A stretch of 15,014 nt of DNA. Origin: a virus. This document shows, in pieces, positions 4,197 through 10,651 of the stretch (its first letter is position 1; every line of letters starts with the position of its first letter). The stretch lies in the UHGV virus genome UHGV-0054899. One strand, written 5' to 3'. A program made the position numbers and the translations under genes. Below the pieces are notes generated by a model. That model saw only the letters and a list, made by a program, of their open reading frames with translations. It ran no database searches and was not told where the DNA came from.

Positions 4197-4643
4197 ATGC
4201 AGTTCCTGTTATGGGATGCGCAACGTCGTGCCGGTATCAGTGATGAGCAGATTAACCAGGCGATGGTAGAAAAGCTGGCGGTTAACAAACAGCGCAAATG
4301 GCCTGAGCCGAAAGATGGTGAGCCGCGACTGCATATCAAAGAGCAGCCTGCGCCGGTTGTGCCAGAGGTAATGGCGGACCCTGACGAGAGTCAGTATGGC
4401 GGAACATATGATGAGGATTATCAGGCGGAATGCGCATACGTGGAGGGCTGGAACGCCTGCCGCGCCGCCATGCTTCAGGCTGGCAACTCTCCGGTAACTC
4501 CGGATGGTTACGTACTGGTTCCGAAGGAGATTACCTGTGCAATGGACGATGCGGCATGGGAGGCATATCACGAAACTAGATGCATGAGTGATATATGGGC
4601 AGCGTTACTCGCAGTAGCACCGAAGCAGGAGGATGTAAAATGA
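4197..4643 (+). CDS. MazG-like nucleotide pyrophosphohydrolase-like protein (DUF550/DUF551-like), possibly truncated or disrupted
   Basis: First ATG at 4197, but the frame is open from 4092 and the 35 codons upstream (LATFGDVGPVGPLKHLSKEALEAAAEPGDLSEWAD) look like conserved coding sequence. Family call is from recalled prophage nin-region proteins. Confidence 0.55.
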   Translation: MQFLLWDAQRRAGISDEQINQAMVEKLAVNKQRKWPEPKDGEPRLHIKEQPAPVVPEVMADPDESQYGGTYDEDYQAECAYVEGWNACRAAMLQAGNSPVTPDGYVLVPKEITCAMDDAAWEAYHETRCMSDIWAALLAVAPKQEDVK

Positions 4644-5361: not shown

Positions 5362-5384
5362 GATATCTGCAATAAATTGCAATG

Positions 5385-5410
5385 GCCGCCGACTATGGCG
5401 GCTTTGTTTT
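5385..5410 (+). terminator. Rho-independent terminator candidate upstream of the terminase operon
   Basis: GCCGCC-GACTAT-GGCGGC (6-bp GC stem) followed by TTTGTTTT. It lies inside the track's 5382 N-terminal extension, which argues against that start. Confidence 0.55.
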
Positions 5411-5421
5411 GCGTGTTACTA

Positions 5422-5454
5422 TTACCAAAACGGTAATTATTACTTCGGTGGTAA
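5422..5454. promoter_or_regulatory. two adjacent inverted-repeat sites TTACC-N5-GGTAA (5422-5436 perfect; 5440-5454 TTACT-N5-GGTAA), candidate operator or activator site for the late operon
   Basis: Read directly, immediately upstream of the terminase small subunit start. An identical perfect site is at 8655-8669. Confidence 0.4.
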
Positions 5455-5456
5455 CA

Positions 5457-6050
5457 ATGCCCGCAGAACCAAAAGCACCAAAACGCAAATCAACGCAGTA
5501 CAAGCCACTCACAGCGATGCAGGAGGCTTATGCACAGGAATATACCAAATGCCCTGAGAATCAGACTCAGGCGGCGATTAACGCAGGATTCTCGCCTAAT
5601 CCGGCGGCTGTCAAAGCCAGCGTCATGATGCGTGATGAGCGTATCCAGAAACGGATCGCCGAACTGATGGAAGAGCGCAACAAGCGCCTGCGCGTCAGTG
5701 CTGATTATGTGCTGCTCCGTTTGGTGGAAATTGACCAGATGGATGTGATCGATATCCTCAACGACGACGGCACACTGAAGCCGATCCGCGAGTGGCCGAA
5801 GATATGGCGTACCACGCTGAGCGGTTTCGACCTTTCATCGACCATCATGAACATGGACGAGACATCAATCGAGACGATCCTCAAAAAAATCAAATGGCCT
5901 GACAAGGTGAAGAATCTCGAGCTCATCGGCAAGCACGTCGACGTCAACGCGTTCAAAGAGCGCCTGGAGGTTTCAGGCACTGTCACCATTGCCGACCGCA
6001 TGGCGAAGGCTCGCCGTCGCGTGAAAGAGCAGGCTGGTGGTGAAGAATGA
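5457..6050 (+). CDS. terminase small subunit
   Basis: ATG at 5457 after GGTGG. N-terminal region (…LTAMQEAYAQEYTK…NQTQAAINAGFSPNPAAVKASVMMRDERIQKRIAEL…) is typical of terminase small subunits. Stop overlaps the large subunit start (ATGA). Confidence 0.8.
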   Translation: MPAEPKAPKRKSTQYKPLTAMQEAYAQEYTKCPENQTQAAINAGFSPNPAAVKASVMMRDERIQKRIAELMEERNKRLRVSADYVLLRLVEIDQMDVIDILNDDGTLKPIREWPKIWRTTLSGFDLSSTIMNMDETSIETILKKIKWPDKVKNLELIGKHVDVNAFKERLEVSGTVTIADRMAKARRRVKEQAGGEE

Positions 6051-7528
6051 CAGCCGCATCCATGTCGCCGGAAGAACAACTCGTCGAGGATATCGCTGGG
6101 TTCACGTATGACCCGCTTGGCTATTCTCTGTATGCGTTCCCGTGGGGAGAAGAGGGAACGGAGCTGGCGCATGCCACTGGGCCGCGTAAATGGCAGGCCG
6201 ACGCATTCCGCGAGATACGCGATCACCTCCAGAACCCCGTTACCCGCCATCAACCGCTGATGCTGGCGCGCGCATCCGGTCACGGCATCGGTAAATCCGC
6301 TTTCATATCGATGCTGATTAACTGGGGCATGTCCACCTGCGAGGATTGCAAGGTGGTGGTGACCGCCAATACCGACAACCAGCTGCGTACCAAGACATGG
6401 CCGGAAATCATCAAATGGTCCAACCTGGCTATCACCAAAGAGTGGTTCACCTGCACCGCCACCGCGATGTACAGCAACGATCCCGGACACGATAAACGCT
6501 GGCGCGCTGACGCCATTCCGTGGTCTGAGCACAACACCGAGGCATTCGCAGGGCTGCATAACGAGCGTAAGCGCATTATCGTGGTGTTCGACGAAGCGTC
6601 CAACATTGCCGATCTGGTATGGGAGGTTGCCGAGGGTGCGCTGACGGACGAGGACACTGAAATCATCTGGGTGGCGTTCGGGAACCCAACGCGCAACACC
6701 GGGCGTTTCCGCGAATGCTTTCGCAAATACAAGCACCGCTGGAAGTGCGCGCAGATTGACAGTCGCACCGTTGAAGGCACCAACAAGCAGCAGTTGCAGA
6801 AATGGGTGGACGACTACGGAGAGGACAGCGACTTCGTGAAGGTCCGTGTGCGCGGGATCTTCCCTGATGCGTCTGAGAACCAGTTTATCCCATCAGGCCT
6901 GACACAGCCTGCCGTGGGCAGGGTTATCACTCCGGCGCAGGTCCAGCACGCTGCTGTAGTTCTTGGCGTCGACCCGTCTCACCAGGGTAAAGACCCGGCA
7001 GTTATCTACCTTAGGCAAGGGCTGCACTGTAAGAAACTTGGCGAGTGGCAACGAACTACCGACGACGTATTGTTTGCTAAGGTGATTGCCGACTTTGAAG
7101 ACCAGTACCAGGCCGATGCTGTGTTTATCGATTACGGGTACGGGACCGGGCTTAAATCAGTTGGCGATAACTGGGGCCGTAACTGGACCCTGATTCAGTT
7201 CGGCAGCGGTACGGCAGATCCAGAGATGGGCAATAAACGCGGTGAGATGTACAAATCAGCCCGCGATGCGCTGAAGCTTGGGGCGCAACTCGACAGCCAG
7301 AACCTTGCCGATGAGCTGAGTGCGCCGGAGTACAAGGTCAGGCTGAAGGACAGCAGGAAGATTTTGCAGGACAAGGAAGAAGTCAAAGAGTTGCTTGGCA
7401 GATCCCCGAACGATGCCGACGCATACGTGCTGACATATGCCGCTCCTGTGACCAAAAAGCAATTCAACTATGGGCAGCAGCAGAGCCAGCATGGCAAGGC
7501 TCTCACAGAGTACGATCCCTATGCATGA
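6047..7528 (+). CDS. terminase large subunit
   Basis: 493 aa, translationally coupled to the small subunit. Walker A-like SGHGIGKS, Walker B-like IIVVFDEAS, and a C-terminal nuclease-type region (…VLGVDPS…). Confidence 0.9.
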   Translation: MTAASMSPEEQLVEDIAGFTYDPLGYSLYAFPWGEEGTELAHATGPRKWQADAFREIRDHLQNPVTRHQPLMLARASGHGIGKSAFISMLINWGMSTCEDCKVVVTANTDNQLRTKTWPEIIKWSNLAITKEWFTCTATAMYSNDPGHDKRWRADAIPWSEHNTEAFAGLHNERKRIIVVFDEASNIADLVWEVAEGALTDEDTEIIWVAFGNPTRNTGRFRECFRKYKHRWKCAQIDSRTVEGTNKQQLQKWVDDYGEDSDFVKVRVRGIFPDASENQFIPSGLTQPAVGRVITPAQVQHAAVVLGVDPSHQGKDPAVIYLRQGLHCKKLGEWQRTTDDVLFAKVIADFEDQYQADAVFIDYGYGTGLKSVGDNWGRNWTLIQFGSGTADPEMGNKRGEMYKSARDALKLGAQLDSQNLADELSAPEYKVRLKDSRKILQDKEEVKELLGRSPNDADAYVLTYAAPVTKKQFNYGQQQSQHGKALTEYDPYA

Positions 7529-7571: not shown

Positions 7572-7991
7572 TTACTTAATGGCATCAAATCCAGCGTTGA
7601 TGGCTTCCGCAATATTGGTGGCATTGGTTTTATCGAATTGTCCATTCTGAATAAGTGCCGCATGCAGACATTGTAACTTCATGTTGTATAAGTGTTCGCT
7701 CATGTAATCATCATCACTTTTTTCTTTAGCATAAACAGCGCGAGAAATATCAAACACATTGCCTTTTTCCATTTCAGAACGTTGTGCCGCTATCCAGTCA
7801 TAGCACGTAACGCTAGTGCCATGGTCTTCGCTAAGAGTTAACCCGGCCAGTTTCTCACCCTGAATTACTTCGTAATGCATTTCATTGCCAGCAAAAACGC
7901 CATAAAAAATGCAGTCATCAGCCTGAACGATACGGGAATATTTTAATGGCCATTCATTTAGATACTTAGCCAACATATCAACTGTTTTCAT
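7572..7991 (-). CDS. hypothetical acidic protein of unknown function (139 aa), accessory 'moron' gene
   Basis: Only credible minus-strand gene in the window. Strong Shine-Dalgarno AAGGTGAG ahead of the ATG, own downstream terminator, and visibly lower GC than the flanks. No motif I recognise. Confidence 0.75.
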   Translation of the reverse strand: MKTVDMLAKYLNEWPLKYSRIVQADDCIFYGVFAGNEMHYEVIQGEKLAGLTLSEDHGTSVTCYDWIAAQRSEMEKGNVFDISRAVYAKEKSDDDYMSEHLYNMKLQCLHAALIQNGQFDKTNATNIAEAINAGFDAIK

Positions 7992-8002
7992 AGTCTCACC
8001 TT

Positions 8003-8026
8003 AAAAAAATGCCCACCGAAGTGGGC
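8003..8026 (-). terminator. intrinsic terminator or attenuator hairpin directly upstream of the accessory gene's ribosome-binding site
   Basis: On the minus strand: GCCCAC-UUCG-GUGGGC, then A, then UUUUUUU, running straight into AAGGTGAGACT-ATG. Confidence 0.55.
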
Positions 8027-8654
8027 GAACTGGAAGCAAGGGAGCCTTCCATGGCTTACGGGTTTACAACACAACGTCATCACAATGGCGTTCTGGTGTA
8101 AAAGTGACGGTGGTCAGCATCAAGGGAAACTGCCACCGCCAAAGGCTACACAGCATCGTTCTTATGGGCGCTTCATCACGGTCCTAAGGCGTGATTGGGT
8201 TGTGGTGGCCGGTGCTGAACTCCGGCTTGGCTATGCGACTTGCTAGTTGACACCGGAGTTTCACCGGGGCGAAGGTTTCGCAAATCGTTTATTGGGTCAG
8301 TGCTGGCTTGCAACGCGCTTACTCAACCGACTACAGCCAACGATATCTACTACCCATCAGGTCTTACACTTGCGCATCAGCCTGCGCATTCACCACAACG
8401 GAAAGAGCACTGGCTAACCAGGCTTCACCGACTCCTCACGATTATCGGTTCAGTGCTCTTACCTGTTGCATCCTCGTCTCTTCCGAGGTGTCACACCGTA
8501 TCGCCACGATGGTGAATCGTCTGTCCGTGCTTACCTAACACTGGCTTGCACATTCCGGCTACCCGGCTGGGGAAGTAGCATCAAGGGAACCCATCCGGAC
8601 CGCTGCGGCACATGTGCCATATGCCGTACATCCACTGCGTCACATCAACACCAA
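8027..8654 (-). ncRNA. candidate structured noncoding RNA or long regulatory leader (identity unknown)
   Basis: About 630 bp with no minus-strand ORF of 60 aa or more; the + strand carries only three mutually overlapping ORFs in all three frames with non-protein-like composition. Ends at a minus-strand terminator. Contains GC-rich hairpins, a 12-bp palindrome GGCACATGTGCC (8607-8618) and dispersed short repeats. Strand and function are inferred only. Confidence 0.25.
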
Positions 8655-8669
8655 TTACCTAAAAGGTAA
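8655..8669. promoter_or_regulatory. inverted-repeat site TTACC-TAAAA-GGTAA (third copy of the motif) in an AT-rich putative promoter region
   Basis: Read directly, in the AT-rich stretch 8650-8750 upstream of the structural operon. A TTGACA hexamer sits on the minus strand at 8691-8686. Confidence 0.4.
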
Positions 8670-8759
8670 TATCTGATGTTATAAGTGTCAATAGCCTACG
8701 CTAAATAAATCATATGTGGTTAAATTGGTAATAATTTAATTGCGTACGGAGCTATTGCT

Positions 8760-8966
8760 ATGTGTATCGGCAGCAAGCCATCAGTGCCAGCAGCGCCAGA
8801 AGTACAGGCTGCGCCACAGGAGCAGGATGCAGCAGTCGTCAGTTCTCGTGACGACGAAGAGCGCCGCCGACGTGCAGCAGCAGGCCGCAGTTCCACTCTG
8901 CTGACTGGTGCGCAGGGTGACACATCAACCGCAAACACCAGCGGTAAAACGCTGCTTGGTCAGTAA
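8760..8966 (+). CDS. small protein beginning MCIGSKP…, possible virion protein (T7 gp6.7-like by recollection)
   Basis: ATG at 8760 with GGAG 8 nt upstream; 68 aa, Ala/Pro/charged-rich. Resemblance to T7 gp6.7 (N-terminal MC-x-S-P-K, small size, position ahead of the portal gene) is from memory and weak. Confidence 0.45.
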   Translation: MCIGSKPSVPAAPEVQAAPQEQDAAVVSSRDDEERRRRAAAGRSSTLLTGAQGDTSTANTSGKTLLGQ

Positions 8967-8980
8967 CGGAGTAGGCAGAG

Positions 8981-10651
8981 ATGGCGGAAACCGAAAAAGA
9001 GCGCCTGCTGAAGCAGCTAGCACAGCTGAAGAATGAGCGCACATCGTTCGAATCGCACTGGCGTGATCTGAGTGACTTCATCAATCCGCGCGGTTCCCGC
9101 TTTCTGACGTCTGATGTAAACCGTGATGATCGTCGTAACACTAAGATTGTTGATCCTACCGGCTCAATGGCTCAGCGCATTCTGTCCAGTGGCATGATGT
9201 CAGGCATCACCAGCCCGGCACGTCCGTGGTTCAAACTGGCAACGCCTGACCCTGACATGATGGACTATGGCCCGGTGAAAATCTGGCTGGAAGTCGTGCA
9301 GCGCCGTATGAACGAAGTGTTCAACAAGTCTAACCTGTATCAGTCACTTCCTGTTATGTACGCAAGCCTGGGTACTTTCGGCACCGGCGCTATGGCTGTT
9401 CTGGAAGATGACCAGGACGTGATCCGTACAATGCCTTTCCCTATTGGCAGTTACTATCTGGCAAACAGTCCGCGCGGTAGCGTTGACACCTGCATTCGTC
9501 AGTTCTCCATGACTGTGCGCCAGATGGTGCAGGAATTCGGGCTGGATAACGTCAGTACATCCGTAAAAGGCATGTTGGAAAACGGCACGTATGAAACGTG
9601 GGTGGAGGTTAACCACTGCATCACGCCTAACGTCAACCGCGACAGCGGGAAGATGGACAGCAAGAATAAGCCTTACCGCTCTGTCTATTTCGAAACTGGC
9701 GGTGACGCTGACAAGCTGCTGCGTGAATCCGGTTTCGATGAATTCCCAATCCTGGCTCCGCGCTGGGAAGTGAACGGTGAAGACGTTTACGCCTCATCTT
9801 GCCCTGGTATGTTGGCACTCGGTCAGGTTAAAGCCCTTCAGGTTGAGCAGAAGCGCAAAGCTCAGCTTATCGATAAAGCCACTAACCCGCCGATGGTTGC
9901 CCCGACATCGCTCAAGAATCAGCGTGTTTCCCTGTTGCCTGGCGATGTGACATATCTCGACGTGTTGACCGGTCAGGATGGTTTCAAACCTGCATACCTG
10001 GTTAACCCGAATACTGCCGACCTGCTGGCTGACATTCAGGATACCCGCCAGACCATCAACAGCGCCTACTTCGTTGACCTCTTCATGATGCTGCAAAACA
10101 TCAACACTCGCTCTATGCCGGTGGAAGCGGTGATCGAGATGAAGGAAGAGAAACTGCTGATGCTTGGCCCGGTGCTTGAGCGACTGAATGACGAAGCGCT
10201 TAACCCGCTTATCGATCGCGTGTTCTCAATCATGGCCCGCAAGAACATGTTGCCTGAACCGCCAGACGTTCTTCAGGGTATGCCGCTGCGTATCGAGTAC
10301 ATCTCTGTGATGGCTCAGGCGCAGAAATCTATCGGCCTCACCAGCCTGTCGCAGACAGTTAGCTTTATCGGGCAACTGGCACAGTTCAAACCTGAAGCGC
10401 TCGACAAGCTCGACGTTGATCAGGCTATCGACGCGTTCTCTGAAATGTCAGGCGTATCGCCAACCGTCATCGTTCCGCAAGAGCAGGTACAAGGTATTCG
10501 TGAAGATCGCGCGAAACAGGCTCAGGCAGCACAGGCAATGGCTATGGGTCAGGCGGCAGCGCAGGGAGCCAAGACTCTCAGCGAAACGCAGACCAGCGAC
10601 CCGAGCGCATTAACCGCTATCGCTAATGCAGCAGGAGCACCGCAGCAATGA
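8981..10651 (+). CDS. portal (head-to-tail connector) protein
   Basis: 556 aa, first large gene after terminase. C-terminal Q/A/M-rich tail (…AQAAQAMAMGQAAAQGA…) resembles T7 gp8-type connectors as I recall them. Confidence 0.75.
   Translation: MAETEKERLLKQLAQLKNERTSFESHWRDLSDFINPRGSRFLTSDVNRDDRRNTKIVDPTGSMAQRILSSGMMSGITSPARPWFKLATPDPDMMDYGPVKIWLEVVQRRMNEVFNKSNLYQSLPVMYASLGTFGTGAMAVLEDDQDVIRTMPFPIGSYYLANSPRGSVDTCIRQFSMTVRQMVQEFGLDNVSTSVKGMLENGTYETWVEVNHCITPNVNRDSGKMDSKNKPYRSVYFETGGDADKLLRESGFDEFPILAPRWEVNGEDVYASSCPGMLALGQVKALQVEQKRKAQLIDKATNPPMVAPTSLKNQRVSLLPGDVTYLDVLTGQDGFKPAYLVNPNTADLLADIQDTRQTINSAYFVDLFMMLQNINTRSMPVEAVIEMKEEKLLMLGPVLERLNDEALNPLIDRVFSIMARKNMLPEPPDVLQGMPLRIEYISVMAQAQKSIGLTSLSQTVSFIGQLAQFKPEALDKLDVDQAIDAFSEMSGVSPTVIVPQEQVQGIREDRAKQAQAAQAMAMGQAAAQGAKTLSETQTSDPSALTAIANAAGAPQQ

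Follow-up and report, generated by a model that had tools for sequence, protein, structure and literature searches.

A probable minus-strand array of structured RNA modules, including a tRNA-shaped scaffold, in an epsilon15-like phage

GOLLD and ROOL are large phage-associated RNAs that are often found beside tRNA genes, and in engineered tRNA scaffolds a foreign RNA replaces the anticodon arm. In P22-like phages, tRNA genes lie at the start of the late operon, and the tRNAs of phage L are located 46 bp downstream of the late start site (PMC8022706). The site downstream of PR' carries Hfq-bound small RNAs (sRNAs) (PMC4104026), and DicF is treated among the phage sRNAs in a 2025 review (PMC12197685). 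Here we describe positions 8027–8654 of a 15,014-nt stretch of the virus genome UHGV-0054899 (hereafter the window, to which all coordinates refer). This region makes up the bulk of a 768-bp gap between the terminase and portal genes, and a first-pass annotation, made from the sequence alone, had described it as free of open reading frames (ORFs) and had suggested three possibilities: a structured RNA not yet described, a long leader, or what is left of decayed genes.

In our reading, held with a probability of roughly 0.6, the minus strand of the region is the template of one polycistronic precursor that yields several stable small RNAs. That it specifies an array of structured RNAs on the minus strand is considerably safer, and we hold this to be very probable. 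The region is non-coding, its strand, module boundaries and structures can be assigned, and it is homologous to tRNA-bearing phage leaders. The first-pass view of a non-coding region and possibly an undescribed structured RNA was borne out by folding, covariation and negative Rfam searches, and compensatory changes in homologues were seen in M1, KL, HP-A and the stretch from M4 to T2, as listed below. What that annotation did not foresee were the minus strand, at least five separately conserved and exchangeable modules, a kinship to tRNA and sRNA islands, a weak likeness to DicF, and a true tRNA in the corresponding slot of a relative. The features of the array, in minus-strand order, are as follows.

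8663–8691, minus strand: candidate sigma-70 promoter, with the -35 element TTGACA at 8691–8686, a 17-nt spacer and the -10 element TACCTT at 8668–8663
8654–8670, no strand assigned: operator palindrome ATTACC-N5-GGTAAT, overlapping the -10 element and the start site
8464–8632, minus strand: M1, a conserved structured RNA of 165 nt with five stems, from a 23-sequence alignment and its consensus structure
8394–8469, minus strand: HP-A, a long hairpin with a stem of ~19 bp, GCAAC-A-GGUAAGAGCACUG (8469–8451) with CAGUGCUCUUUCC-GUUGUG (8412–8394); inverted repeat I1
8196–8399, minus strand: KL, a tRNA-shaped scaffold RNA directly after HP-A
8399–8391 with 8207–8199, minus strand: P1 of KL, the 9-bp closing stem (GUUGUGGUG with CACCACAAC), followed by CCA (8198–8196)
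8388–8371, minus strand: P2 of KL, the hairpin UGCGCA-GGCUGA-UGCGCA, with a 2-nt linker from P1
8227–8370, minus strand: KL insert (the cargo), a 145-nt version unique to the window
8226–8208, minus strand: P3 of KL, the hairpin GCCGG-AGUUCAGCA-CCGGC, which abuts the 3' strand of P1
8175–8195, minus strand: M4, a small hairpin (AUCACGCC-UUA-GGACCGUGAU) that follows the cassette slot
8100–8154, minus strand: M5, a DicF-like unit, GGCGGUG...CACCGUC and then UUUU (hairpin and U-run at 8140–8100), with the loop UCCCUUG
8031–8102, minus strand: M6, the body of a terminal sRNA-like unit, with hairpins at 8102–8063 and 8051–8031 (CUCCCUUG in the second loop), from the consensus fold of 9 relatives
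8003–8030, minus strand: T2, an intrinsic terminator from a terminator scan, GCCCAC-UUCG-GUGGGC followed by A and U7

The array resembles GOLLD and ROOL in comprising several hundred nt of structured, phage-borne, tRNA-associated non-coding RNA, whereas it forms a chain of separately mobile modules instead of one large fold, and belongs to enterobacterial hosts. Rfam 15 was scanned with the window and 18 related loci, both at the gathering threshold and at E up to 10, and neither GOLLD, ROOL nor any other large Rfam RNA was matched. M1 and KL likewise match no Rfam family; the only matches were at chance level, real tRNAs, and isrJ in other loci. ARAGORN found 0 genes in the window, neither tRNA nor tmRNA, in agreement with the first-pass annotation, which had noted no tRNA T-loop and no resemblance to tmRNA in the region. 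In their position, the modules are comparable to phage tRNA clusters such as those in the late leaders of phages L and Sf6 and in the ban operon of P1 (tRNA-Asn, -Thr and -Ile), which are also co-oriented with their operon. Unlike these clusters, the window has no tRNA, and KL has a 145-nt insert and no anticodon arm. AgvB and AsxR are found at comparable loci of lambdoid prophages and share a Hfq-type terminator architecture; they differ in being primary transcripts of 51–60 nt that are partly convergent to the operon (PMC4104026). Their ~42-nt 3' region (..GTATCTCATGC.ATTGCCCGAACCCA.TCGGGC.TTTT) gave chance matches of 8–9 nt in the window and none in the viral-contig and phage loci L001–L130 of our collection, and AgvB, AsxR and EcOnc03 were rejected as identities of the array for lack of a match. 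A type III toxin–antitoxin system was also rejected, since there are no tandem repeats (dispersed ones of 10–23 nt only) and the downstream gene varies among relatives; the PADLOC library was not searched.

In the alignment of 23 sequences, about 60 positions of M1 are invariant and lie in long single-stranded stretches. One such stretch, GGAAUGUGCAAG at 8545–8556, is fully invariant, and GGUGUGACACC is invariant except for one deviation at each of two positions. The palindrome GGCACATGTGCC, pointed out at 8607–8618 in the first-pass annotation, is present there and caps hairpin S1 of M1; the 23 homologues preserve its core UGGCACAUG almost without change. The stems were paired in 97.2% of alignment cells, and double-sided changes occurred in 10 pairs, compared with 3.2 ± 1.1 in shuffled controls (0/500). 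By blastn, M1 was found in 92 phage records. A covariance model of M1 gave full-length matches in P1 (109.7 bits), mEp390 (170.8 bits) and Kosakonia sacchari (157.4 bits), as well as in 22 of 100 IMG/VR loci, with one copy in each; it gave no match in the Q–S segment of the lambda-derived DE3 prophage (L003). Note that a 14-mer scan of genome contigs was poorly selective, almost all of its 120 matches being due to chance, and that Kosakonia sacchari provided the only real M1 among the 80 loci taken from it. A likeness of M1 to P15–P17 of RNase P RNA was set aside because the bases in common are at positions that differ from one homologue to another.

HP-A carries a variable apical insert, which is 38 nt long in the window (8450–8413) and 27–115 nt long in 69 unique versions. 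The pattern of its 3' strand was found in at least 120 IMG/VR viral contigs, sometimes as 2–3 tandem copies, and pairs that extend the stem covary (AU 33, GC 17, GU 5 at one; GC 46, AU 7, GU 6 at another). Many of the inserts finish in a perfect T-arm. In 130 regions of ±400 nt around HP-A, we counted 48 uncalled canonical T-arm hairpins in sense orientation versus 6 in antisense orientation, none of which is called a tRNA by ARAGORN. Long regular duplexes are substrates of RNase III, and the record of epsilon15 marks a site for this enzyme in that phage's own version of the leader. The stem of HP-A is a candidate RNase III or processing site.

KL follows directly. The hairpins GCCGG...CCGGC (8208–8226) and TGCGCA...TGCGCA (8371–8388), which the first-pass annotation had called hairpin-capable, are real and correspond to P3 and P2 of this scaffold. 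The loops of P2 and P3 are complementary (GCUGA/UCAGC). Thirty-three unique members of the KL family were found, and in an alignment of 25 of them, 95.5% of the cells were paired. Specifically, 11 of the 25 pairs changed on both sides, compared with 1.5 ± 1.1 after shuffling (0/500) and no more than 3 in slid controls. Pairing was 100% in the loop-loop helix, and three of its five pairs covary (GGCUGA/UCAGC to GACUGA/UCAGU and GGUCGA/UCGAC). The whole element also folds better than expected (z = -4.36). As a match of topology only, the acceptor-type stem of KL abuts a T-type arm and is linked by 2 nt to a D-type arm, and the D-type and T-type loops are in contact. Judged from its sequence, the wiring of KL is that of a tRNA, with an arbitrary RNA in the place of the anticodon arm. 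Engineered scaffolds and tRNA-like structures share this topology, including the variable RNA at the anticodon place; KL differs from engineered scaffolds in being natural and phage-encoded, with a P1 of 9 bp and a CCA that is not conserved, and from tRNA in that its D-like and T-like loops are non-canonical and joined by five Watson-Crick pairs.

The slot of KL is occupied by a true tRNA-Arg in SPN9TCW, where the flanks are the same, and in three further loci (L017, L020 and L025). In two others (L098 and L119), the slot occupants reach the Rfam tRNA threshold despite inserts of ~50 nt. The shortest member of the KL family (L075, 83 nt) gave no tRNA match. Its P3 hairpin, GCCGGAGAUCAGCGCCGG (L075 2190–2207), is identical at 17 of 18 positions to the central hairpin of RydB (E. 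coli K-12 rydB, L255 2714–2781; sub-threshold in Rfam). We rejected KL as a relative of RydB, as the likeness is confined to this one hairpin and the remainder of RydB is unmatched. Elsewhere, an intact HP-A and KL with a 178-nt cargo was observed in Klebsiella phage Magnus, a virulent member of the Ackermannviridae with a 158-kb genome (L133 2380–2735). In this phage the two modules lie under tiny ORFs called 'hypothetical protein', 2 kb upstream of tRNA-Met and tRNA-Arg, and the insert of HP-A resembles a class-II tRNA body with a perfect T-arm.

The cargo of KL is hypervariable. Across the family it measures 33–162 nt, and 27 unique cargos fell into 19 unrelated classes. The ends of the KL scaffold were found in 106 phage records, none of whose matches reaches into the cargo of the window, and this cargo was absent from 5,426 E. 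coli genomes. On its own, it folds no better than shuffled sequences (z = -0.75). It contains CCGGUGAAACUCCGG, which approximates the reverse complement of P3, and for this reason the minimum-energy fold pairs the cargo with P3; this alternative pairing could be a structural switch or an accident. The cargo was rejected as an antisense RNA to its own phage, since only the self-match was found. One cargo class of other loci (L076 4596–4659, L084, L099 and L102) copies helix 11 of 16S rRNA (E. coli nt 243–282) with 34 of 40 positions identical and with compensatory differences in the helix. As this likeness is restricted to that class, the cargo of the window was rejected as an rRNA mimic.

From M4 to T2 (8195–8003), all elements are conserved, with covariation, in 9 relatives. 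M4 is near-invariant in these alignments and was also found beside the tRNA-Arg of SPN9TCW. The stem of M5 covaries in relatives, and its U-run has 4 U, compared with 5 in relatives. M5 is similar to DicF, which is encoded in the dicB operon of the Qin prophage, in being a terminator-shaped sRNA in a repressor-controlled prophage operon, and the two share GGCGGU...CAGUUU; they differ in that M5 reaches 16 bits against 48 in the DicF model and that the 5' seed is not conserved. No match to DicF at threshold was found in the 18 related loci. In M6, a likeness of 8088–8069 to the GcvB seed was set aside because the matching bases lie in homologue-variable columns. The heptamer CAAGGGA, of which 1.74 copies are expected per 15 kb, has three of its four window copies within these 630 bp, and the corresponding UCCCUUG lies three times in sequence predicted to be unpaired, namely in the loop of M5, the loop of M6 and the distal part of the S2 arm of M1. 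Two stem pairs of T2 covary in relatives (AU/GC 5:4 and CG/GC 6:3), and the epsilon15 record labels its homologue a rho-independent terminator.

Four lines of evidence identify the minus strand as the RNA strand. The strong terminator at 8030–8003 and the terminator-type hairpin at 8140–8100 are in functional orientation on the minus strand only. Conserved G·U pairs, of which an invariant U·G pair in M1 is one strand-fixing case, would become A·C mismatches on the opposite strand, indicating that the RNA is read from the minus strand. Homologous pieces in other phages are co-oriented with their surroundings: with Q to S in the lambda-derived DE3 prophage, with the ban operon in P1, with the early-left operons in mEp390 and Stx2a_WGPS2, and with tRNA genes in SPN9TCW (tRNA-Arg) and Magnus. 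The candidate sigma-70 promoter, which is a reading of the sequence, would start a minus-strand transcript at ~8656, and TTGAC(A/C)-N17-TACCTT is also present upstream of M1 in epsilon15-like relatives. The site homologous to the operator palindrome is annotated as a repressor binding site in epsilon15 (NC_004775 2931–2947), and the palindrome is conserved in relatives. The promoter would be under the control of a repressor through the overlapping operator.

In the precursor reading, a non-coding primary transcript of ~650 nt would arise from the repressor-controlled promoter and would contain, in this order, M1, HP-A, KL, the small hairpin M4, the DicF-like sRNA and the terminal sRNA-like unit, which phages would swap as cassettes. 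The transcript would end at T1 (near 8100) or T2 (near 8003), and read-through would feed the gene at 7991–7572. By analogy with tRNA operons and the dicB operon, host RNases would cut the precursor into stable small RNAs, with RNase III acting at HP-A and RNase P, E or Z at KL. The variable cargo would be both protected and displayed by the tRNA-like scaffold, and the UCCCUUG hairpin loops may serve as pairing or binding sites. Maturation of KL in the manner of a tRNA, which is likewise argued by analogy, falls slightly short of even odds in our estimate.

Several observations weigh against this reading. Transcription and processing, as well as the role of each RNA, are themselves inferred. 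The -10 element is weak, and a strict promoter scan did not report the candidate -35/-10 pair, which it missed because the -10 agrees with the consensus at only three of six positions. The DicF model (RF00039) scores 16.1 bits at 8105–8154 on the minus strand, below its threshold of 48. For KL, tRNA detectors are silent (ARAGORN 0, RF00005 no match at E up to 10), P1 has 9 bp and not 7, CCA follows P1 in only ~16 of 27 members and at varying offsets, and the minimum-energy fold of the window forms the pairing between cargo and P3 instead of P3 itself. The 25 aligned KL sequences were gathered with window-derived patterns, which limits their diversity. In addition, epsilon15 does without most of the array, indicating that the array is dispensable for that phage.

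The main rival, which we consider improbable, is a long regulatory leader in which M1 acts in cis, like the put RNA of HK022, so that RNA polymerase becomes termination-resistant, passes T1 and T2 and reaches the cargo gene (in lambdoid phages, the early-left operon), the other modules being passengers. Much of the anatomy is compatible with this rival. In HK022, putL lies just downstream of PL (PMC9378689). In most loci a strong promoter precedes M1 by 30–150 nt; M1 is the promoter-proximal module of epsilon15-like phages, and in the window it stands ahead of the terminators. In mEp390 (L132 27191–27973) and Stx2a_WGPS2 (L254 2271–3048), a non-coding array of ~780 nt with M1 first fills the space from the cI-like repressor gene to the first early-left gene. 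M1 occupies the pL-nutL-N place of lambda, and no N-like gene is annotated there. Furthermore, the window gene at 7991–7572 has no space for a promoter after T2, and the 'long leader' of the first-pass annotation keeps some plausibility, because the array stops 14 nt before this gene. On the other hand, the M1 covariance model at E up to 10 had no match in HK022 24000–40751, a segment with the immunity region, O and Q that should cover PL and PR, and M1, at 165 nt, is more than twice as long as put (~70 nt). It is present as one copy per genome; in mEp390 the pR side has no counterpart. In P1, M1 (L130 2418–2605, corresponding to AF234172 71018–71205, where the record has no feature) is not promoter-proximal, as it lies 2.4 kb from Pban, directly after trnI and before ban, in an operon that also has a 'dicF-like region', tRNA-Asn and tRNA-Thr. 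Strict scans of P1, Stx2a_WGPS2 and mEp390 detected no terminator between M1 and the next gene.

Comparison of close relatives bears on a second rival. Close relatives differ by entire blocks, and the modules are exchanged one at a time. The phage epsilon15 has no equivalent of 8129–8576 (448 bp), and its join from 8128 to 8577 coincides exactly with the two 13-nt copies of AGCATCAAGGGAA. As the first-pass annotation had noted, this repeat occurs in the window at 8116 and 8577, in exactly two copies. Since the copies are the endpoints of the gap, either epsilon15 has lost the segment or the window has gained it. A second repeat listed there, CTGGCTTGCA, does occur twice, at 8303 and 8541 (each one base from the positions given), and its significance was not upheld: at least two matches were obtained in 112 of 200 shuffles, which is chance level. 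In SPN9TCW, 8197–8449 is replaced by other sequence that includes a minus-strand tRNA-Arg(UCU), and in E. coli ET846 a different cassette of 138 nt replaces 8208–8450. At window positions 8388–8468, identity to the lambda sequence that immediately follows tR' is 91%. The modules belong to the tRNA and sRNA islands at phage operon starts, such as the lambda late leader, the P1 ban operon and pL leaders.

This free gain and loss of modules would also be expected if the region were the neutral wreckage of a former tRNA or moron array, its hairpins being leftovers copied by phage recombination. Many neighbouring elements have T-arms and are not functional tRNAs, and the cargo of the window has neither relatives nor unusual stability. 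Nevertheless, we regard wreckage as quite unlikely. Compensatory changes preserve features that are foreign to tRNA, such as the 5-bp loop-loop helix of KL, the invariant bases and covarying stems of M1 are maintained across P1, lambdoid, epsilon15-like and Klebsiella phages, and HP-A and KL are intact in a virulent phage of the Ackermannviridae.

A function of the DNA itself, be it as a hot spot of recombination, a site of attachment or packaging, or a set of protein-binding palindromes, appears very unlikely. The region is a mosaic joint between relatives, one of its palindromes is an annotated operator, and an IHF site is annotated nearby in the epsilon15 record; against this, the conserved G·U pairs are strand-specific and point to RNA, the terminators are directional, and the same modules occur at unrelated genome positions, always co-oriented with the local operon.

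Coding potential was assessed on both strands. As the first-pass annotation had stated with a cut-off of 60 aa, the minus strand has no long ORF; we found none of at least 50 aa over 8027–8654. Overlapping plus-strand ORFs in three frames are also present as described, and they number five, of 53–91 aa. Folding of the region was better than that of shuffled sequences on either strand (z = -3.3 for minus and -4.0 for plus). Among the 23 M1 homologues, variable columns were distributed over the codon phases as 38/32/36, indels of 1, 2, 4 and 5 nt, which are not multiples of 3, were common, and no protein frame was kept open. The proposal of decayed protein-gene remnants found no support in these results, and a frameshifted pseudogene or small proteins from the plus-strand ORFs are hardly credible, despite those five ORFs and the 'hypothetical protein' annotations over homologous DNA, as there is neither codon periodicity nor a conserved open frame, and entire modules are replaced by unrelated sequence or a tRNA. 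Such 'hypothetical protein' calls come from several databases.

Returning to the precursor reading, a string and keyword search of the literature, which did not cover subscription papers, found no earlier description of M1 or KL, and the words 'tRNA', 'tRNA-like' and 'scaffold' occur nowhere in the text of the 2025 phage sRNA review (PMC12197685). Together with the absence of an Rfam 15 match, this makes it a realistic prospect that M1 and KL represent new classes of RNA. A wider proposal, which we consider tentative and rather unlikely, is that the modules belong to an undescribed stable-RNA cassette system spread across enterobacterial phages (lambda, P1, epsilon15-like phages and Ackermannviridae). 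In such a system, KL, held together by its loop-loop helix, would be matured by the tRNA machinery of the host and display cargos; since at least one cargo class copies helix 11 of 16S rRNA, some of them may be decoys or mimics of host RNAs. M1, at the head of the array, would be a new class of RNA that could act in antitermination, catalysis or protein capture.

If the assignments hold, the few known families of phage non-coding RNA would gain two, one for the conserved 165-nt RNA and one for the tRNA-shaped carrier of hypervariable RNA, and much of the 'empty' DNA in phage tRNA regions would be accounted for. KL would be a natural counterpart of engineered tRNA scaffolds, and the diversity of cargos, including the copy of an rRNA helix, suggests a role in an arms race or in host manipulation. 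The elements are unannotated, or lie under spurious 'hypothetical protein' calls, in well-studied phages (lambda after tR', P1 upstream of ban, and Stx2 phages beside cI), and the alignments of M1 and KL could be used as models to correct the annotation of well over 100 phage genomes.

Two further observations concern related loci. In the lambda-derived DE3 prophage, HP-A and a stem-closed cassette were found directly after tR' (L003 3930–4080, minus strand, between tR' and S). The stem of this cassette, GUGCUG...CAGCAC-AACCCA, is compensatory relative to GUGGUG...CACCAC, and the RefSeq record has no annotation there. In addition, isrJ, a Salmonella prophage sRNA that scored above the Rfam threshold, precedes HP-A by ~400–750 nt, with both on one strand, in two loci (L027 2253–2329 and L016 1706–1782).

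Judged by its gene layout, which it has in common with epsilon15, SPN1S/SPN9TCW and the prophage of E. coli ET846, the window derives from an epsilon15-like (Uetakevirus-type) phage or prophage. The genes around the array are as follows.

5382–6050: terminase small subunit
6047–7528: terminase large subunit
7572–7991, minus strand: downstream cargo gene of 139 aa (phrog_4846), beyond which the 768-bp gap begins
8760–8966: gp3
8981–10651: portal

The Shine-Dalgarno sequence of the phrog_4846 gene starts right after the U-run of T2, so that no separate promoter would fit after the terminator. In epsilon15 (Phage_gp49_66 family), SPN9TCW and ET846, unrelated genes stand at this position, and the junction between terminator and Shine-Dalgarno sequence is kept in epsilon15 and ET846, the two relatives compared at this point. 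Further away in the window, a plus-strand ORF at 4197–4643 encodes a dATP/dGTP pyrophosphohydrolase domain (PF04447, E = 1.3e-18).

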